Below, piece after piece: positions 4,835-34,023 of a DNA stretch of 64,000 nt. Position 1 is the first letter of the stretch. Every line of letters starts with the position of its first letter. Both the position numbers and the translations under genes were made by a program. Source of the stretch: a virus; IMG/VR virus record IMGVR_UViG_3300024308_000021, positions 5,467 to 69,466 of that record. One strand, written 5' to 3'. The notes under the pieces are model-generated. The model searched no databases. It was not told the DNA's origin and saw only the letters and a program-made list of their open reading frames with translations.

Positions 4835-5821
4835 ATGTTGCTGAAAACACCATACGACGCACCGGTCATGAAAGCCTATGACCTCAAAAAAATCCAATCC
4901 CAAGTAGCTGAAGCCATCGTAGCTGGTGAGTATGCTAGTCGTGAAAAACTCGACGAGTCTGCTGCTATCTACAGAACTCCTAATCCGATGTGGGATTTTG
5001 AGCTGGCTAATGACGTCGTGGCTATCGTGAAAAATACTGACTGGAAAACCACAGTCGATCCTTTCCCTATTCCTTTTAAGATGCGCACTGCTGCTGGTAA
5101 AGAGCTGTACGTCCTGGATGCTCGGATGTACACAGCTCCGGCCAACCACTACCGTCAGTACGGCATTATGCACAACCCGTCTGAGATTGGTGTGTATTCC
5201 GACATTATCTCTTGGATGCGTTGCTGGGATGCCCGTGAGGGTGGTGACATTCGTCGTGTGCATGACTACGTGACTGGTACTTTCGCTAACTGGATTGCCA
5301 GTGCTGTTTCCAGGATCACTGGTGTGAACGGTGGTGAGGATTACGATATCATTCGTTTCCTGGCAGCTTACTGGTTCCAGGCTCAGTTCTCTGAAGTACC
5401 TTACGAGGTTACTGTAGAAGAGCGTCTGCGGATGCGTCGCGTAATGACCAACTGCTGGCCTCGCCCGGATTCCGTGGTAGATCTGCAAACCAAGGACTTC
5501 GGTTACATCGGAAACCTGGAAGACTTCCTGGAAGCGGTTAAGAAACAGCTTCCTAACAATCGTCGGGTACACATGCTCAACCGGGCTTACTTCACACAGC
5601 AGATCGCCAACAGCTGGCGCGGCTTCCATGCTGGTGTGATGAGCAACGTGGCTATGGAGTATCCTCCTTTCTTTATCGCCATGTACTACTACTCGCTGAC
5701 CAACGGTTGGGCTAAAGATGTTGGTTTGGGTAAAGTAGCACAGAACCTGCGCGATACTCAAAAGCGTGCAGACTTCCTGGCCTCCTATCGGAGAACTATC
5801 AATGTCTGGAAACAGCCGTAA
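4835..5821 (+). CDS. virion structural protein (phiKZ gp28-like)
   Basis: 328 aa, GGAAGG RBS, divergent from the sheath as in the phiKZ-like core block. Confidence 0.6.
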   Translation: MLLKTPYDAPVMKAYDLKKIQSQVAEAIVAGEYASREKLDESAAIYRTPNPMWDFELANDVVAIVKNTDWKTTVDPFPIPFKMRTAAGKELYVLDARMYTAPANHYRQYGIMHNPSEIGVYSDIISWMRCWDAREGGDIRRVHDYVTGTFANWIASAVSRITGVNGGEDYDIIRFLAAYWFQAQFSEVPYEVTVEERLRMRRVMTNCWPRPDSVVDLQTKDFGYIGNLEDFLEAVKKQLPNNRRVHMLNRAYFTQQIANSWRGFHAGVMSNVAMEYPPFFIAMYYYSLTNGWAKDVGLGKVAQNLRDTQKRADFLASYRRTINVWKQP

Positions 5822-8348
5822 ATTTCTATCTGATTTGGTAGCGCATGCTCGAGCGAACGTGTGGTGTACTCCACGCCAAGACGAGCAGGCTATACTCAAA
5901 CTCACTAGACTGACCCCGGATTTCGGGGTCTTACGACGGTTTGCTCTAGACTGGAATTCATTGGACCTGCCTGAGTCAGGTCCTTATTTCCATGTCTATC
6001 AAATCGGTTCTAACCTTCCTACTGATCTGGGGTTAGGTAACGTAGGACGTGAATGGAAGCGAATGGATCAGATTTGTAAAGATGAGTTGCTGTATGCTGA
6101 TCTCTACGAGTCTGACGGATACCACTTGCCTTTAACAGGTGCTTGGTTCTGTCGTACCGACAACCAGAATTTGCTGTTGGCTGTACGCATCCATCCTAAA
6201 CTTCCAGATCTAAACCAGAACTCAGTTTATCTGCGCTTGTATTCCAGTGCTTGGTTCCGAGTGGAGTCTAATCCCACTGCACCTCACGAGATCCGAGTGC
6301 GTGGTGGGGTAATGACTAGTGTTCCTGAGATTACCACCATTATCACCGAATACAACTCCCTGGTGGGTTTAGGTCGTGTGGGTGTGTTCCTGTACTGGAA
6401 CGGTGTGTGGGTTCGTAACCTAAGAGCTGCTTCGGTAGCTATCGGTGATGTACTGGAGTATGTTTACGATTCTAGTGTTTATCGTTCCGTAGGTGTGGAG
6501 CTGAAGAACCTGGATCTGTTCACCAGTATTATCGACACCACCAACAAATACCTACTGCATGTTCCGAAGTCTGAAAACAATCAGATAGCGTATCGTGACG
6601 ACGTGGAGGTGGTGGTACATCGCCTAGCTGCTGATGGAGATACTGAAGCTGGACTGTATTACCATCGTAACAATGAAAACGGCATGCGGATGGTTACTCA
6701 TAACGACTATTCGTTCCCGGTGCATCATGTTACTGCTGTAGCTAACCGACTCACCCCAGCAGCTCCTATCGACGCTGTAGGGGTGCGTGTGTACTTCCGT
6801 CACAGTGGGTACGACCGTCCGTTAGTGTTTGAATCCAACCGCATACACGAGCTCTACAAGCTCAGCGACACGCAGATCCGTCAGGCGATGACTGGGATGC
6901 ATGCTACTTTACCAGAGTGGCAAGCAGCTCATCTCGAGAACTCCTGGTACACGTATCTGATGCGTAATACCTTCGGTAACTTTACATCCGATGATGTTAT
7001 CCGTGCGTACGGGTATAACGCGATGTCTGTTCTAAGTGGGATGTCTCCCATGCCTCCTCGTAAAGACGAATCTAACTTCCCCGTTCCAGTGGGGTGTGAG
7101 GCTCGGGTTTGTGGTGTGTACGAGTATAAGGATGGGGTACTGTCTGGTGTGGTGTCTGGGTATATGGGTGTTTCCTATACTCCCAACTACACCGGGACTA
7201 ACTTGGTGGAGTATGTGCAGGCCGAACCTACTAACATAGGGATCGAACAACCAGGTACGATGTGGGTACTGGAAGATGACCTAGACTATCGCGTGTATCG
7301 CACGCCGTCTGGGTATCTGCCGGGTAAACGCAAGTGGGTGGATGTTACTGAGTTAGATGTAGTCCAAGAAGACTGGCCTGTGGTGGAGGTTAAGGATACT
7401 ACTGGTATCTACGACTACTGCTTGAAAACCGATGAGCGCTTCGTTACTTATGCTTTTGATTTCAATCCAGTGGATCGACTGTTTAAGTTCGATGTCTTCC
7501 ATTACACTGAAGATGGTGGTGTGGCTACTATGGAGATTCCTCCGGGTAGTTTGGAGCTGTGGTTGAACAACCGTCGTTGCATTCGGGATCTGGATTATCA
7601 CGTAGAGTGGCCTACTGTCGTGATTACCAACAAAGAGTTCCTGATAGAAGGCGTAAACCGTGTTCGGGTACGCGCTGTAGGGTTCTGTACTGCCGACGGG
7701 GAGTTGGAACCATTAGGCGACTTCGGTTACGTAGAGAATGGACTAGTGAGTGTTAATAACCGGTTTAACATTCGGGATGATAAATCCCAAGTCCACATAG
7801 TCTACGGTAAGGTATACGATCGAAGTGTACTGAAGTTCTCTGAAAAAGACTCTGGGGTGTATCTCGACAACGTACGAGAGGGTGCTCCTTATCTGTGCAC
7901 TAACAACTGGGTGCCGGTGCGTGGGGTAGGGGCGGAGCGCTCTGTGAAACTCTACCACGCTGCGCTGGAGCTAGATACCAGGGTCGAAGCTTATATGTCT
8001 CGATACCTACCACAGCCCTCGCGACCGAACTCTCCAGGTATCCCTGAGTTTTACCAGCTTTACAGTCCGTGGTTCAGTAAGCTGACCTGGGATCTGAAAC
8101 TGGGATTACTGCGGCCTGAAGAAGTCACGACCGACAAACAGCTCCTAGATGCCGTAAAACGCTACGAGGAGTTGCTGGGGTACGATCCCCTCAAGACTGG
8201 TGTAGACACTCACTACGTGGCAGTACACCCGCACTCATCCCACAACGTGGTAGAGGTTACTGGTGAGCAGTACGACGTACTGCGTCGAGCTAATCGCCTG
8301 GTGTTCAACAACCAGCTTCTGCTGTCTCAGTTCTATCACTTGGTTTAA
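5802..8348 (+). CDS. large virion/baseplate protein (phiKZ gp27-like, ~848 aa)
   Basis: ATG 5802 after GGAG; NVWCTPRQD N-terminus; synteny. Confidence 0.65.
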   Translation: MSGNSRKFLSDLVAHARANVWCTPRQDEQAILKLTRLTPDFGVLRRFALDWNSLDLPESGPYFHVYQIGSNLPTDLGLGNVGREWKRMDQICKDELLYADLYESDGYHLPLTGAWFCRTDNQNLLLAVRIHPKLPDLNQNSVYLRLYSSAWFRVESNPTAPHEIRVRGGVMTSVPEITTIITEYNSLVGLGRVGVFLYWNGVWVRNLRAASVAIGDVLEYVYDSSVYRSVGVELKNLDLFTSIIDTTNKYLLHVPKSENNQIAYRDDVEVVVHRLAADGDTEAGLYYHRNNENGMRMVTHNDYSFPVHHVTAVANRLTPAAPIDAVGVRVYFRHSGYDRPLVFESNRIHELYKLSDTQIRQAMTGMHATLPEWQAAHLENSWYTYLMRNTFGNFTSDDVIRAYGYNAMSVLSGMSPMPPRKDESNFPVPVGCEARVCGVYEYKDGVLSGVVSGYMGVSYTPNYTGTNLVEYVQAEPTNIGIEQPGTMWVLEDDLDYRVYRTPSGYLPGKRKWVDVTELDVVQEDWPVVEVKDTTGIYDYCLKTDERFVTYAFDFNPVDRLFKFDVFHYTEDGGVATMEIPPGSLELWLNNRRCIRDLDYHVEWPTVVITNKEFLIEGVNRVRVRAVGFCTADGELEPLGDFGYVENGLVSVNNRFNIRDDKSQVHIVYGKVYDRSVLKFSEKDSGVYLDNVREGAPYLCTNNWVPVRGVGAERSVKLYHAALELDTRVEAYMSRYLPQPSRPNSPGIPEFYQLYSPWFSKLTWDLKLGLLRPEEVTTDKQLLDAVKRYEELLGYDPLKTGVDTHYVAVHPHSSHNVVEVTGEQYDVLRRANRLVFNNQLLLSQFYHLV

Positions 8349-14906: not shown

Positions 14907-15263
14907 ATGAAAATGTCTAGACTAGCTCGAGCTTTCCGTTCTCTGGAATGCAACCAAGGCGTTACTGTGGTATTGGATCTCAATCCTGACTACGCTACTA
15001 ACGAAGTATTCTTCAACTCTATCAACCAAGGCAGCGGGAGTGCCCAGGGACGCATTCGACATCATCTGGCTAAGTTCGGTATTAGCTACTTTGCTCTCAC
15101 TGGTATCAACTCTCTGGAGCAGTGTCACGAAGTCTTGGCCGACTATGGAATGAACAACTGTGGGTCAGGTCGTATCCTACTGATGTGGGATCGCAGACCC
15201 GTGGGGATCGAACAGATCGTAGGGAGCTTTAACAACAAGATTGCTGATGTGGTCTTCTGCTAA
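14907..15263 (+). CDS. hypothetical protein
   Basis: 118 aa, GAGGT RBS, followed by a terminator. Confidence 0.75.
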   Translation: MKMSRLARAFRSLECNQGVTVVLDLNPDYATNEVFFNSINQGSGSAQGRIRHHLAKFGISYFALTGINSLEQCHEVLADYGMNNCGSGRILLMWDRRPVGIEQIVGSFNNKIADVVFC

Positions 15264-15265
15264 GC

Positions 15266-15299
15266 GAGGGGGCTTCGACCCCCTCTAGTTCTTTTTTTT
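15266..15299 (+). terminator. intrinsic terminator
   Basis: GAGGGGG-cttcga-CCCCCTC plus T run. Confidence 0.8.
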
Positions 15300-15726
15300 G
15301 CCCTCGTGCGCCGAGCCGCCCGATCGCGCCTGGCTGCGCCGCGCCCAGAGTTTAGTTGCTAATTCGTATTTTTTCTTTTAGAGTATACAAGATACTCTAA
15401 AAGCCTCTGATGAGGTTTACTATTTGATTTTTTATTTTATCACGTTAGTGATTCTTCTTTTCAATTTAAAACATTAGAGTAGTGTGATACGTAGTAATCT
15501 AAACTACTCTAATTTAAACATTCAACTAGTTAGCTAATTGGTTTTTTTAAGTATGTAAAAAATTACATAGTCTTATTATATGTGAAGTGCTATTAAAAGA
15601 CGACTGAGTGAAGAGACTGAGGGTATCGAAGATACACGAGGGAACGGAACGAAGGAGATCAGAATGGAACGACGACTCTGACCCACTCTAGCGAGGAGCT
15701 AGAGGGGGGAGGTGGCGGAGAGGCAA

Positions 15727-15816
15727 GGGGTAGGAAGAGATAGAGAAAGGAAAAGGGGGAGGAGGGGCGCAGCCCCTCCGTCTGGGGGAAAAGGAAAGAG
15801 AAAGAGAAGGAAGGGG
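15727..15816 (+). repeat. polypurine mirror repeat, 33-nt arms (31/33), around a central hairpin
   Basis: 15727-15759 read backwards equals 15784-15816 except for two T/A positions; spacer holds GGAGGGGC-gca-GCCCCTCC. Confidence 0.92.
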
Positions 15817-15980
15817 GATTTCAGCAAAAGCTGAATAAATCCCCAGTAAAATACTTTTTTATTCGCTTACTTAGAAACGACTAGCTAGTGGTGGCTTTAG
15901 CTAAACCACGAGAGCTAGGAGTCGGATTGCAGTTAGTTTCAGCAGGTTCCTGGAAGACAGCGGAACCCACTGGATTTCAG

Positions 15981-15998
15981 ATACATATTACTACAATG
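15981..15998 (+). promoter_or_regulatory. putative early promoter
   Basis: TATTAC-N5-TG followed by hairpin CTAGGAGCT-tgg-AGCTCCTAG and an AATAAAGGGG RBS. Confidence 0.6.
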
Positions 15999-16057
15999 CA
16001 TCTAGGAGCTTGGAGCTCCTAGCTTTATTTCCCAAAATAGAATAAAGGGGTTTTAGA

Positions 16058-17836
16058 ATGCAAGAAAAGATTCAAGAGCAACTCGATGCATTACAAGGAA
16101 GCTGGATCCTACAGTGCGTAAGAGACCACGGAAGTCCAGAGGCGTTGGATGACGATACGGTACCTGGGTACGATGTAGTCGTGGGGGAGTACAGACTGTC
16201 ACTACGCAAACAGGAACTGCCCAGGAGGTATCTGAGTAGCTACAATCCAGTGAACATTACAACTAATCTCGAAGTAGACGATAAAGCTCCTAAGCTCCTG
16301 AAGCTTTACGCAGAGCATCTGAATCGCAAAACAGACGAGACTTGGTTAGCTGTACTCGAAGAACTCGTACAAGTAGAAAACAAACTCAATAAGAAGGAAA
16401 AGAAAATGTTGAAACTGCATTGGGATCTGAGAATTGAAAAACTGAACGACAGTAATCCTCACAAAGGAGTAGTACTGGGGGATTACGTTCTGTCGATAAC
16501 CAACGCACCTAGCTTTTATCCAGGATATAAGCTTCACTGTCCTCCAGTGCCGCCGAAGCTGGATGATGGTGAGATTTTTGAGTTGGTAAGAGCTGGTAAA
16601 ATCACAGAGCTGGAAGCTGCGGTTTTGGAGTACAGTAAACACTGCGGTAATCCAACTTCGGCTACAGTAGGTGAGCTGGAAGCTGCTCTCGAGAAAGCTG
16701 GGGCTGAGTGGTTTGCTATGGAGCAAGAGATCAAGCACATAGTAGGTCAGATGCAACTCCACTGGCACGCCGGGGTAACTGATAATAAATACAAAGACCC
16801 AGTCAAAAGAGAAGTAATACGCCAACCAATAAACGATACTCAGTGGTTCGTTTTGAGTTGTATGGATCCAATTGCTTTTCATCCGAAGGGTTTTTGTTTC
16901 GAACCGCCTGTTTGCTTGGGAGAAGTCCTTAATGAGCACCTGGGTGTGGTTGCGGGACACTATCTAGATATCGTAAATGTCGACCCGGCAAACCCTCGTA
17001 GTATGAAACGTTATCATGCCCTCGTAAAACAAATTTGGGCGTTGGAGAAAGCAATGGATCAGTCTAAACCAGCAGACACCCAGCTAGGGTTCACTCAGGT
17101 CGATGATGTTACTGTAAAAATCGAATCGCTGCGTAGCAAACTTAAGTACGATTGGTTATTCCAGATAGTTGATGCTGGAACTCCGGATCATGCAATCTGG
17201 CCCGAAGCTAATATGTGGTGTCGCGACTCTTTAAGCAATGGTAGTGACTTAGCCATCCTTTATCGTCCTAAAGGAGAAGAGTTACTTGGCTTTTTGAAAA
17301 TAGGCGGGCATCCATTCCAACAGTTCCACAACGCTACGATAACAAACCGACTTACTGAAGAGTTTTTGAATATGATTGGTAGACATACCACCAATGTACC
17401 GGTGTTTGAGAAAACCCCCGGTTATGTGGATCTGCTCGAAGCAGTCTTGGAACAGGAAACCAAAATGGGACAGGGGTGGTCGACTGAGGGAGCAAGCCAC
17501 CAACACTCACTCAAACTCAACCCAACACCTACCGCGTACAGCTACCTGGTGGTGTTCCAGGATCTGATGGCTCCGCAGAGTACTGTACTCGGTGCTGACT
17601 GGGTTGGTAGTTTTGAGATCAAGCCTCTTTACAACGTCGCTGTGTATCGTGCTCCTTCTGAAAGCTTTGCGCTGATGTTTACACTGGATGGTAACGTCCG
17701 GGTTGATGCTCTAGAAGCAGGTGCTAAAGGTACCGGTCTGGCAGCGCAGCTCAGTAAGCTGGCTGTAGCGCACCTGGGACACACTACATTAGAATGGAGA
17801 GAGACCACTAAGCTCCTGCGTGCTTGTTTCGAATAA
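16058..17836 (+). CDS. hypothetical protein, apparently made of ~115-aa degenerate modules
   Basis: 592 aa; in-frame internal Met at residues 117 (MLKLHW) and 232 (MQLHW). Confidence 0.85.
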   Translation: MQEKIQEQLDALQGSWILQCVRDHGSPEALDDDTVPGYDVVVGEYRLSLRKQELPRRYLSSYNPVNITTNLEVDDKAPKLLKLYAEHLNRKTDETWLAVLEELVQVENKLNKKEKKMLKLHWDLRIEKLNDSNPHKGVVLGDYVLSITNAPSFYPGYKLHCPPVPPKLDDGEIFELVRAGKITELEAAVLEYSKHCGNPTSATVGELEAALEKAGAEWFAMEQEIKHIVGQMQLHWHAGVTDNKYKDPVKREVIRQPINDTQWFVLSCMDPIAFHPKGFCFEPPVCLGEVLNEHLGVVAGHYLDIVNVDPANPRSMKRYHALVKQIWALEKAMDQSKPADTQLGFTQVDDVTVKIESLRSKLKYDWLFQIVDAGTPDHAIWPEANMWCRDSLSNGSDLAILYRPKGEELLGFLKIGGHPFQQFHNATITNRLTEEFLNMIGRHTTNVPVFEKTPGYVDLLEAVLEQETKMGQGWSTEGASHQHSLKLNPTPTAYSYLVVFQDLMAPQSTVLGADWVGSFEIKPLYNVAVYRAPSESFALMFTLDGNVRVDALEAGAKGTGLAAQLSKLAVAHLGHTTLEWRETTKLLRACFE

Positions 17837-22773: not shown

Positions 22774-23733
22774 ATGAAGAACACTGTTCGTATCTACGCC
22801 TGTGGCGGTGGTGGTATCGCCCAAGCTCAGAATCTTCCTGCGTTGGAAAACGCGGTAGGACTGGCCACTCCGAGTATCGTATATTGTGATACCTCAGAAG
22901 CCAACCTCCTGGCTCACGACACTACTCAGACCTTCCTGATCAAAGGAGCTAAAGGTAGTGGTGGTTTGCGTTCTCAGAACGCTGAACCCATCGTGGAGTC
23001 CGTAGGTGACCTGTTAAGGGAACATCCGCCATGCGACTTCAACATCGTTCTGTTCACTGGCGGCGGCGGTTCTGGTAGTGTGTTCGGACCGATCGTGCAA
23101 GGTGAGTTACTGCAACGTGGTGTAGCCACGGTTGGGTTGATGATCGGTTCTACCGAGTCAGCTCGTGTCACCGAGAACGTTCTGAACACTTTCCGGTCTC
23201 TGGAATCTGTACGTGGTGAGCTCCCTCTGGTGATCATGTACTTCCAGAACCAGGACAACGCCTCCCAGGCTGTAGTAGACCAGCAAGTAATGGCAGCGCT
23301 CCCTCTGCTGTTGATGCTGGCTTCCGGTGAAAACTACAGTATGGATCCGAACGATCTACTGCACTTCTTGCGGTACGACCGTGTGACGGATGTTCCCGCC
23401 CAACTCACGCTGTTGGACATCTTTACTGATGCGGAAGCGGTTGCTCGCGCAATCACTCATCCGATTACCAACGCCAGCGTGTACTCCGATCGCGATGCTA
23501 CTGTATTGCAACTCGGTTCCCAGTACGACGCATTCGGCTTCCGTCCGAAGATCGATGCGATGGATGCTCCTGAATCAGTGCACTTCGTTACGCACACTCA
23601 AGAGCTTCGTGAAATCCTGGGTGGACTCCAGTCCGCTCGTGAAAAGTTCCAGGAGACTGCCAAGTCGATCCGCCCTGCTATGGATCTGCTGTCCGGCGTC
23701 TCCCAGAAAGGCCCTGGTAAACTAGTCCTGTAA
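22774..23733 (+). CDS. phuZ: phage tubulin PhuZ
   Basis: IYACGGGG, GSGGLRSQN, tubulin signature GGGGSGSVFGP, T7-loop DPND; 319 aa. Confidence 0.95.
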   Translation: MKNTVRIYACGGGGIAQAQNLPALENAVGLATPSIVYCDTSEANLLAHDTTQTFLIKGAKGSGGLRSQNAEPIVESVGDLLREHPPCDFNIVLFTGGGGSGSVFGPIVQGELLQRGVATVGLMIGSTESARVTENVLNTFRSLESVRGELPLVIMYFQNQDNASQAVVDQQVMAALPLLLMLASGENYSMDPNDLLHFLRYDRVTDVPAQLTLLDIFTDAEAVARAITHPITNASVYSDRDATVLQLGSQYDAFGFRPKIDAMDAPESVHFVTHTQELREILGGLQSAREKFQETAKSIRPAMDLLSGVSQKGPGKLVL

Positions 23734-32061: not shown

Positions 32062-34023
32062 ATGGGAGTCGTCTTAGATGATCTGGAGTCCTCTCCAGAC
32101 TCCGAAGAAAACACCAACACTACTACTCAGGCTCCGGTCGCTCCGGCAACTGAGCCAGTGGTGCAGAAAGCTCAACCCCAACCGGAACCCGCATACCGCG
32201 CTACCGAAAATCATAATACCCAACAACAAGGAAAAATGGACATGTCCCAAGAACAAAACCAATTCGACCAGCAAGCTGCTACCGACATCTTTGCTCAGCT
32301 GGCCAACACTGCATCCCCGCTGGGTTCCCGTTCTGCCGAATACGGCCACCGTTTCAAGATGGCCTGGACTGACGCTGTAAAAGAATCCACTGGTAAATCC
32401 GAAATCGACGGCTACGTCACCAGCATCATCTCTGGCGTCTCCGTAGGTTCTCCGGCCGACATCGCTGCTCTGAGCCACATCGGCAAAGACAAGCGTATCG
32501 TGACCTACTGCCTGCTGCTGGGCGGCGCTGCTGTAGAGCTGGCTCCGAAAACTGAGCAACGTGATGGCGAGACTATCTCCGTTACCCAGACCATCGGTAC
32601 CGTGTTCGACGGCGATACCAACATGGCTATCGCCACTGTACTGGGTCAGCAATTCGGTGTCCCGGCTCAAGCCGTGATGATCGTTGGTAAGTCCCTGGTG
32701 CCTAAGAACTTCGAGTGCACCCCGCTGACCATGCGTGACGTCATCCAGAACGCCTACATGGCGGTATCCGTTGTCTCCAAGATGACTGAGTTCCGTCCGT
32801 TCACTGTTTCCCAGCTGTCCACCGCGATCAACCAGAACATCCGTGTTGGTGCCAAGGCCGACTTCTCCGCACAACCGACTAAAGACATCTACGGTCGTCC
32901 GCTGCGTACCGAAGTTACCCTGGAAACCTACGCTGCTGTGAAAGGTAAGTCCAAGTCCTGGGAACAGCAGATCAACCTGACCCGTGTACAAGGTTTCATC
33001 AACGTTCTGTACCTGCCGCAGCTGCAAGTACAAGGCATGATGCCTTCCACTCAGGTGCTGATGCCGGAACTGGTAATCACCAACGTCTCTGCTGACTTCG
33101 GTGACCCGACTCTGGAGCGTATCCTGTTCGCGCTGGTAGGTGCTCTGTCCATCGAGCGTGATGGTCTGTGGGCTAAAGCGTTCATCCCCCGCAACAACGT
33201 CAAAGGCCGTATCGACACCCGTGACATCGGTGCCGTAGGTTGCGACATCAAGCTGGGTGCTGACGTTCCGCTGGCCAAGATCGATACCAAGTCTGCAAGC
33301 TTCACTCAGGACAAGCTCAAAGAGCTGCTGTCCATGGTGTTCCGCCGCGAGGCCGGTATCGCTATCTCCATGGATCTGGATCCGACCGCTTACAACTCCT
33401 GGCTGACCGACATCTTCGCACGTGCCGCTTCTGGCGACTCGCATGCGCAGACCACCATCCTGCGTGCTACCGACCGCATGTGCAACGGTAAGTTCCAGGC
33501 TCGTTGGGATGCTCTGCAAGTCCAGGGTGAGAAGCGTGTGCTGATCAACCGTGGTCTGGTTCAGAAAGGTACCTACGTCCATGACGACGGTACCCTGCAC
33601 TCTCTGGATGAGATGAACGATTACCTGGCCGTGTGCAACCTGTACGGTTCCGGTGATCCGCAGGTTCTGCGTGAGTATGTCGAAACCATCGAGTCTCCGG
33701 ACATGCCGATGCCGATCCGTCTGTCTCGTCGTGAGCGTCTGTTCCGCAGCATGAACGACACTGTGAACATCGAGTCCTACGCTCTGCGTGCCATGTTCAC
33801 TCCGTACTACATGCAGTGCTTCGTTGCCGCTCTGGCTGAGTGCAAGGTTGTCATCAACCCGGATACCTCCGGCTTCACTCTGACCGGTGGTCTGCGTGGC
33901 GATGCTTCCCTGCAAGGCATGGGTATGACTGGGTTCTCCAACACCCTGTTCCAATCCCAGACCTTCGGTGGTGGTAACTGGGGCAACAGCATGGGTGGTT
34001 CCTGGAACAACAACTGGGGTTAA
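32062..34023 (+). CDS. chmA: chimallin, phage nucleus shell protein
   Basis: 653 aa, very strong codon bias, disordered termini, immediately upstream of the nvRNAP beta-prime gene as in phiKZ gp54-gp55. Confidence 0.88.
   Translation: MGVVLDDLESSPDSEENTNTTTQAPVAPATEPVVQKAQPQPEPAYRATENHNTQQQGKMDMSQEQNQFDQQAATDIFAQLANTASPLGSRSAEYGHRFKMAWTDAVKESTGKSEIDGYVTSIISGVSVGSPADIAALSHIGKDKRIVTYCLLLGGAAVELAPKTEQRDGETISVTQTIGTVFDGDTNMAIATVLGQQFGVPAQAVMIVGKSLVPKNFECTPLTMRDVIQNAYMAVSVVSKMTEFRPFTVSQLSTAINQNIRVGAKADFSAQPTKDIYGRPLRTEVTLETYAAVKGKSKSWEQQINLTRVQGFINVLYLPQLQVQGMMPSTQVLMPELVITNVSADFGDPTLERILFALVGALSIERDGLWAKAFIPRNNVKGRIDTRDIGAVGCDIKLGADVPLAKIDTKSASFTQDKLKELLSMVFRREAGIAISMDLDPTAYNSWLTDIFARAASGDSHAQTTILRATDRMCNGKFQARWDALQVQGEKRVLINRGLVQKGTYVHDDGTLHSLDEMNDYLAVCNLYGSGDPQVLREYVETIESPDMPMPIRLSRRERLFRSMNDTVNIESYALRAMFTPYYMQCFVAALAECKVVINPDTSGFTLTGGLRGDASLQGMGMTGFSNTLFQSQTFGGGNWGNSMGGSWNNNWG

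Follow-up and report, generated by a model that had tools for sequence, protein, structure and literature searches.

A polypurine mirror repeat with compensatory arm changes in nucleus-forming jumbo phages is a candidate triplex-forming element

A polypurine mirror repeat lies in a non-coding stretch that is among the most strongly conserved in a group of nucleus-forming jumbo phages, and changes in one of its arms are matched by mirrored changes in the other, which supports the view that the symmetry is selected and not accidental. The triple helix is the only known class of structure that requires mirror symmetry, and a triplex-type constraint on the module is probable. As read from the alignments, the rules governing the facing pairs are those of the antiparallel purine-motif (reverse-Hoogsteen) code, G.G-C, A.A-T and T.A-T, and they support a triplex-forming element of the neutral-pH H-r type, not of the acid H-y type.

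The question whether triple-helical nucleic acids serve any selected function has stood open ever since H-DNA was first described. Most natural H-motifs are simple repeats, known for the instability that they cause. The phage element differs from them in being non-repetitive and single-copy, with a symmetry kept by compensatory substitutions and indels. This is the kind of evidence that established RNA secondary structures, here applied to Hoogsteen-type pairing; a literature search found no natural triplex motif with support from compensatory evolution, and none in phages. A copy in the cultured phage pPa_SNUABM_DT01, which grows on Pseudomonas aeruginosa, makes the triplex question experimentally tractable, and mirror-aware covariation searches can reveal functional non-Watson-Crick structures that are invisible to standard tools.

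The mirror repeat and its setting

The stretch analysed, hereafter the window, comprises 64,000 nucleotides (positions 5,467 to 69,466 of IMG/VR record IMGVR_UViG_3300024308_000021) of a 125,585-bp contig from a nucleus-forming jumbo phage. The phage encodes split RNA-polymerase subunits in the window, together with chimallin (32062-34023) and the tubulin PhuZ (22774-23733), the presence of the last two bearing out an earlier statement that its DNA is enclosed in a protein nucleus. The mirror repeat sits in a 794-nt gap without genes (15264-16057), flanked by genes for proteins of 118 aa (14907-15263) and 592 aa (16058-17836), both on the plus strand. The 592-aa protein has no Pfam, PHROG or PDB match, and only three homologues were found among 5.8 billion proteins (99%, 69% and 61% identity). 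The features of the gap are collected in Table 1.

Table 1. Features in and beside the gap that holds the mirror repeat (window coordinates)
Feature	Position	Strand	Basis or remark
Intrinsic terminator of the 118-aa gene	15266-15285	+	Terminator scan
AT-rich region, 22-28% GC, with perfect inverted repeats	15350-15578		Composition
Perfect inverted repeat	15375-15386/15392-15403		In the AT-rich region
Palindrome with AAAAATTACA, resembling the phiKZ middle-promoter motif	15552-15569		Motif comparison with PMC4666361
Putative phiKZ-type start motif TATG, start at G 15582	15579-15582	+	Tentative
Purine-rich 5' part of the core	15582-15726	+	Hairpins 15623-15635 and 15682-15707 (fold); nearly invariant in eight sequences
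Arm 1, T-bearing (T at 15731 and 15741), proposed third (reverse-Hoogsteen) strand	15727-15759	+	
Spacer with Watson-Crick hairpin 15761-15768/15772-15779	15760-15783	+	Predicted fold
Arm 2, purine-only, proposed to supply the purine strand of the acceptor duplex	15784-15816	+	
Terminal hairpin (15814-15844), using the last G run of arm 2	15814-15860	+	Fold
T run after the terminal hairpin, possible first stop of the putative transcript	15855-15860	+	
Variable segment with alternative versions or deletions in relatives, ending in a conserved motif (about 15985-16000)	15861-16001	+	
Terminator-like hairpin (16002-16022) with T-rich tail, just 5' of the 592-aa gene	16002-16031	+	Terminator scan

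An earlier note, made from the sequence alone, had described a mirror match at 31 of 33 positions with two T-versus-A differences, around a central hairpin with a gca loop. A recount of the arms gave the same 31/33, both mismatches placing a T of the 5' arm opposite an A of the 3' arm, and the hairpin with its GCA loop forms in the RNA minimum-free-energy fold, in which both arms are unpaired. The hairpin spans 19 nt and pairs 16 of the 24 spacer bases, with about five unpaired bases outside it. The order of the module is an outer G run, a GA-rich arm, an inner G5, the Watson-Crick hairpin, a second G5, the mirrored arm and an outer G run. The predicted RNA fold is far more stable than the folds of shuffled sequences (z = -4.8).

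In a symmetric-alignment scan, the mirror score of 27 was the best in the 125,585-bp contig, followed by scores of 13 and 12, and the best inverted repeat in the same scan scored 13. The note had also proposed a comparison with composition-matched shuffles, none of which equals the observed symmetry. When three purine-rich stretches were each shuffled 3000 times by mononucleotide and 3000 times by dinucleotide, the best mirror scores averaged 8-9 (sd 1.2-1.5) and reached at most 21, and shuffled arms gave 15.6 +/- 2.8 in-register matches with a maximum of 28 in 200,000 trials, against the 31 observed. Sliding the register by 1-3 bases lowers the matches to 11-18. Since Tandem Repeats Finder detects only a weak AAAGAG x3.3 within one arm, with no real periodicity, the symmetry does not have a simple-repeat origin. 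The same sequence occurs in seven further independent assemblies and is therefore not an assembly artefact. The module is single-copy, occurring once in the 125.6-kb contig and once in the complete 265.5-kb DT01 genome, and in both it is the top mirror repeat and the only purine mirror repeat.

The purine-rich part of the gap, about 240 nt that are almost purine-only, shows GC and AT skews that both reach +0.64, and the mirror-repeat region is the sole 100-nt stretch of the contig with at least 85% purine. Upstream of the unit lie perfect inverted repeats with related arms (15375-15403 and 15473-15513), and the arms of the palindrome just before the start motif covary in L002, a more distant relative; these inverted repeats and the palindrome look, from their sequences, like protein-binding sites.

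Conservation in relatives

Protein look-ups with the two flanking genes yielded seven further copies of the element (L013 and L035-L040). Among these eight sequences, a core of about 300 nt (15553-15850) is 96-100% identical, compared with 62-84% for the segment 3' of it and about 77% for coding DNA of the same contigs, and most of the few core changes are located in the arms. The terminal hairpin is kept in 8/8 sequences, the T run that follows it is deleted in L013, and the terminator-like hairpin before the 592-aa gene is conserved with loop changes.

A gene of the 118-aa family lies directly upstream of the element in L002, L037 and L039, and one or two small genes separate the two in L036, L038 and L040. 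Comparison of window 15264-16057 with L013:486-1157, L014:3-635, L036:3589-4337 and L038:3490-3804 shows extra small genes, coding for 210-223 aa or for 104 and 124 aa, inserted on one side or the other depending on the relative. The element is thus a fixed point within a mosaic region.

Two further lineages carry modules that differ in sequence. In L002, whose syntenic structural protein is 56% identical to that of the window's phage, a purine-rich unit at the same place contains a different mirror repeat of 32 nt. The third lineage consists of L010 (with identical copies L069-L076), L008, L083 and the cultured Pseudomonas phage pPa_SNUABM_DT01. At the syntenic site its module reads G3, 12 GA-rich bases, G5, a Watson-Crick hairpin, G5, the mirrored 12 bases and G3; in DT01 it occupies an unannotated gap at 119,619-119,939. 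Within this lineage, the stretch that runs from the start motif through the second arm is the same at 97/97 bases, compared with 60% identity in the adjacent protein. In L007 the module is shorter again, its arms being about 13 nt long.

Not every member of the family has the module: nine cultured relatives (Xoo-sp14, AH06, RTH11, PA1C, Ea35-70, Proteus phage 10, FLC9, RP31 and RSF1) contain nothing comparable within a distance of 4-7 kb from the syntenic gene. The gap and its 592-aa neighbour gave no match by blastn or tblastn against 50,697 phage records, and neither the arm sequence nor the 592-aa protein found a match in IMG/VR. A loose pattern of the 5' motif retrieved from IMG/VR the contig of L002 and 11 unrelated matches, and a metagenome scan with the 118-aa family found one incomplete relative and one contig already known. 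A scan of 15000-16400 against Rfam 15 (E <= 10) gave two chance-level hits of 13.6-13.9 bits, against gathering thresholds of 55-59.

The metagenome contigs of several relatives break in or beside the element (L015:1, equivalent to window 15828; L013:1, equivalent to window 15493; and the end of L032). Such breaks would be expected from near-identical sequence in diverged co-occurring phages or from a structure-prone purine stretch.

Compensatory change between the arms

The earlier note had suggested a search of Chimalliviridae for syntenic mirror repeats with compensatory changes, and both-arm co-changes were indeed found in two lineages. Relative to the window, L038, L039 and L040 carry an AG-to-GA swap in arm 1 and the mirrored swap in arm 2, and the run of A beside the inner G run has grown from four to five in both arms. 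The same three sequences have gained a third T in arm 1 (A-to-T), which faces an unchanged A. In the DT01 lineage there are four arm variants, in which positions 10-13 read GAGG, GGAG, AGAG or GGGA, the same in both arms; T occurs at varying positions of the 3' arm and always faces A, and the central hairpin, flanked by the inner G runs, covaries by Watson-Crick rules. We roughly count at least seven mirrored events that are independent, of which three belong to one lineage and four to the other.

Across eight distinct variants, the 218 facing pairs comprise 114 G:G, 76 A:A, 21 A:T, six T:T, one C:T (in L002) and no A:G, the mismatch to expect most often from arms drifting separately in an A/G alphabet. 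Seven of the eight variants confine T to the inside of one arm, where it always faces A. Arm 2 is purine-only in all variants of the window's lineage (33/33 in the window). The seven variants other than the window's have 17-31 matches over 20-34 positions, and arm lengths vary together across lineages (33/33, 34/34, 32/32, 20/20 and about 13/13).

Neither recombination nor protein binding offers a ready source of this symmetry. Mirror arms are non-homologous in either orientation, so that neither recombination nor gene conversion can homogenise them. Symmetric protein dimers read inverted or direct repeats, and proteins cannot read mirror arms symmetrically because mirror repeats reverse strand polarity. 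Since neither can account for the mirror arms, selection on an antiparallel nucleic acid structure in which like faces like is indicated.

A probable purine-motif triplex

H-r DNA is built of CG*G and TA*A triads, tolerates TA*T, forms at neutral pH with Mg2+, and has been found in plasmids of Escherichia coli on raised supercoiling or induced transcription (PMC11667243). The triplex part of the original H-DNA reading gains from the compensatory facing pairs, which support it, but an acid-pH form does not fit, as an H-y triplex would be mismatched at the T positions; probing at acidic pH, which had been recommended alongside Mg2+, is for the same reason not the most telling condition. The two T-versus-A differences, counted in that reading as departures from the mirror, do place T opposite A and are not defects, since they fit the T.A-T triad of the H-r type.

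Measured against the usual description of an H-motif, the mirror halves match at 31/33 positions in the window, in a register that is lost on sliding, and the composition agrees: arm 2 is 33/33 purine, arm 1 holds two T facing A, and no A:G pair occurs among 218. The spacer is longer than the description allows, at 24 nt in the window and 33 nt in the DT01 lineage. Classical H-motifs and catalogues of non-B motifs have spacers of a few bases. We infer the triplex of this module from sequence rules, with a spacer (24-33 nt) above that of classical H-motifs.

The likeness to H-r DNA lies in mirror purine arms, in the pairs G.G-C, A.A-T and T.A-T and in the purine-only composition of one arm, and the neutral pH, divalent cations and supercoiling or transcription under which H-r DNA forms would be fitting for an element inside a cell. 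Classical H-motifs, however, are simple repeats with very short spacers and no sign of selection, whereas the phage element is non-repetitive and single-copy, bridges its arms with a hairpin of its own, lies in an ultra-conserved non-coding unit and has a compensated symmetry. The intrastrand triplex motifs BoxC, PIT and TM (classes I and II; Holder et al. 2015, PMC4666352) place pyrimidine, purine and reverse-Hoogsteen tracts on one strand, and candidate tracts would follow their class II order in the DT01 lineage and their class I order in L002. Those motifs, however, are short, G/C-rich, dispersed in multiple copies and tied to genome instability, whereas the phage element is single-copy with GA-rich arms of 20-34 nt. 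Candidate U/C-rich tracts adjoin the all-purine arm in L010, L008, L083, DT01, L007 and L002; the window has no matching same-strand pyrimidine tract, and only CCCC (15841-15844) faces the outer G run.

The design is also strikingly similar to that of synthetic polypurine reverse-Hoogsteen hairpins (PPRHs), which are made to clamp a polypyrimidine strand. PPRHs are man-made, with a short thymidine loop and chosen targets, whereas the phage element has a structured hairpin as linker and its own locus as the only known target.

A DNA-level model

A model in which an H-r triplex in the DNA is locked by an R-loop is the reading we favour among those considered, with a chance that we put slightly short of even. 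The T-bearing arm would act as the third strand, and the all-purine arm with its pyrimidine complement would form the acceptor duplex, the central hairpin taking up the 24-nt spacer in a tight turn. Because the module lies in a purine-rich unit behind a TATG start motif, the purine strand would be the non-template strand. Transcription from TATG would produce a purine-rich RNA that stays hybridised to the pyrimidine template in an unusually stable hybrid, and the freed third-strand arm of the non-template DNA would fold round the hairpin onto the neighbouring arm duplex. The product would be an H-r triplex, made of DNA throughout, that an R-loop locks in place (an 'H-loop'), and the outcome a persistent, site-specific RNA-DNA hybrid and a barrier to polymerase. 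We infer the roles of the strands, the R-loop and a part in replication; the module has a promoter-like TATG and a strongly purine- and G-skewed non-template strand.

The most attractive use of such a structure would be to start DNA replication by priming, since a dedicated primase is missing from chimalliviruses, for which R-loops have been put forward as sites where replication starts (PMC13648698). An origin switch was among the possible roles listed in the earlier note, beside a polymerase pause, a shell anchor and a packaging cue. The position of the element relative to skew extremes does not favour an origin there: in the complete DT01 genome the extremes of cumulative GC skew lie at 72.8 and 261 kb, at least 47 kb from the element at 119.7 kb. 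On these grounds, GC skew was rejected as support for an origin at the element despite a peak in the contig 2.3 kb away. That peak, in the cumulative GC skew of the source contig (G000), is at 23,542 (window position about 18,076), downstream of the element; AT skew turns near the same point, gene orientation is constant there, and the pattern is absent in DT01.

Known R-loop origins include T4 ori(uvsY) and ori(34) and ColE1 RNA II, and a triplex combined with an R-loop is known at GAA repeats. The phage element would resemble the GAA-repeat 'H-loop' and R-loop origins in having a promoter followed by a purine-rich non-template strand and, as proposed here, a stable hybrid of purine RNA and pyrimidine DNA with the displaced strand free to fold. 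It differs from R-loop origins in that GC skew gives no support in the phage (DT01), the hybrid, primer and origin roles being proposals of this analysis, and from GAA repeats in that those arise by pathological expansion and are not conserved.

Two differences between lineages count against the model. The arm with T is the 5' one in the window and in L002 but the 3' one in the DT01 lineage, so that no single direction of action fits every lineage. The putative transcript also has the module at its 3' end in the window and at its 5' end in the DT01 lineage.

Probable transcription of the unit and a possible RNA-level fold

The ultra-conserved non-coding unit of about 300 nt is probably transcribed, as judged from its sequence. 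TATG occurs at the equivalent place in L002, L010, L008, DT01, L083 and L007, and in phiKZ a TATG with G at +1 is required by the non-virion RNA polymerase (PMC4666361). A promoter at this site is tentatively suggested on that basis. With one occurrence in the contig against 2.3 expected, the combined phiKZ middle-promoter motif gives no evidence of a promoter. A further motif, TATTACTACA with a few adjoining bases (15985-16000), lies just 5' of the terminator-like hairpin; it is found in the window's lineage and in some members of the DT01 lineage (L010, minus strand, about 6465-6480), where its surroundings are unalignable, and may represent a second promoter or a processing signal.

Because the element is part of an ultra-conserved and probably transcribed unit, a fold at the RNA level is a live alternative, which we consider possible but distinctly less likely than the DNA-level model. 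The unit would then be the gene for a purine-rich non-coding RNA of about 280 nt, and the arms a natural polypurine reverse-Hoogsteen hairpin that either closes an intramolecular triplex with a nearby U/C-rich tract or clamps a polypyrimidine target in trans. The target might be its own template DNA or another nucleic acid, and protection of the RNA end, tethering or regulation of the target are possible roles. The putative start motif and the terminator-like sites bracket the unit in every lineage, and its other helices covary by Watson-Crick rules with many G-U pairs, as in a folded RNA whose stability exceeds that of shuffles. In the DT01 lineage, a U-rich tract just 5' of the all-purine arm can pair with that arm in 4/4 variants, C always facing G, and in L002 the U-rich tail of a terminator follows the nearly all-purine arm, layouts that match class II and class I intrastrand triplexes, respectively. 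A synthetic RNA version of a mirror polypurine hairpin binds both single- and double-stranded DNA targets in gel shifts (PMC8466063).

Against an RNA triplex, an account in Holder et al. 2015 (PMC4666352), based on earlier work, has it that purine-motif triplexes do not form with RNA strands. The RNA of the window contains no pyrimidine tract that matches the 33-nt arms, and an indel of one base is enough to explain why the U-rich tract in the DT01 lineage seems to covary. Duplex energies between the arms and the transcript are no better than those of shuffles, leaving a pyrimidine partner in the same transcript as only a weak possibility. The search for a target in trans was also negative: in the contig, only the element's own locus offers a matching polypyrimidine target, and the arm core has ten exact matches in 185,579 prokaryote genomes, all in unrelated Lys/Glu-rich coding or low-complexity DNA. 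In favour of the DNA level, it is for DNA only that purine-motif triplexes are established, and duplex DNA always supplies the pyrimidine partner, which the window's transcript does not offer to the 33-nt arms.

It is unlikely, and somewhat more so than an RNA-level fold in general, that the phage RNA forms a natural long purine-motif triple helix or clamp that seals the RNA end or grips the template DNA in the phage nucleus. If it did, this would be the structure that, according to the literature, RNA does not form. To our knowledge, a long purine-motif RNA triplex has never been described. RNA triple helices of the MALAT1 and PAN ENE type protect transcript ends, and an RNA fold of the phage module would resemble them in its place at the putative transcript end beside a U-rich tract; it would differ from them in that they are pyrimidine-motif U.A-U stacks.

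Other explanations

A G-quadruplex, or another purine-only fold that dispenses with the pyrimidine strand, would use four G runs with GA-rich loops. Four runs of at least three G do bracket the arms in every lineage, and the three intervening stretches in the window are 24 nt each. Loops of 12-35 nt (24/24/24 in the window and 12/35/12 in the DT01 lineage) are nevertheless far beyond the canonical limits of 1-7 nt with at most one long loop, and a quadruplex has no need for loops 1 and 3 to mirror each other, for compensatory changes or for T to face only A, which makes this reading improbable.

A relation of the arms to protein, as a short coding sequence or as the site of a dimeric protein, is more improbable still. 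Reading frames are open across the module on both strands, but this is expected of any sequence that is purine- or pyrimidine-only. In the otherwise invariant core, the frame is shifted by the one extra base in each arm and by further single-base indels in L036 and L037, and the coding reading was rejected on this evidence. A symmetric dimer, for its part, would read inverted or direct repeats and not mirror repeats. A sponge for CsrA/RsmA was considered in view of the many GGA motifs and was also rejected, as the swaps destroy GGA in both arms and keep the symmetry.

Least probable of all, and strongly disfavoured, is low-complexity purine DNA whose symmetry is an accident or the relic of a simple repeat and whose conservation reflects recent exchange between phages: long human mirror repeats are proposed to originate when simple tandem repeats expand (PMC12214015), and the mosaic flanks, with genes inserted on either side, speak for frequent recombination, but no shuffle equals the score, tandem-repeat structure is lacking, the mirrored co-changes in two lineages number at least seven with no A:G pair, and recombination cannot homogenise arms that are non-homologous either way.

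Further purine- and pyrimidine-rich elements

Three other elements were noted among the sequences compared. In L085:1925-1982, a terminator and a long C/T-rich tract follow a distant relative of the gene upstream of the element in the DT01 lineage, and the contig ends just beyond; the tract may be the pyrimidine strand of another triplex-type module. In L023 and L026 (IMG/VR 3300020548_000009 and 3300020557_000008), a non-coding stretch opens with the TAAAAG..GA..GAG.GAAG.GA motif of the window's unit, continues G/A-rich and ends in a C/T-rich tract, and may be unrelated or a very distant analogue. In the PhiPA3-like Pseudomonas phage PA1C (L056), an odd G-rich, promoter-proximal element lies on the minus strand near 2043, where TATATG is followed by two G7 runs within a GC palindrome and by TATATA.
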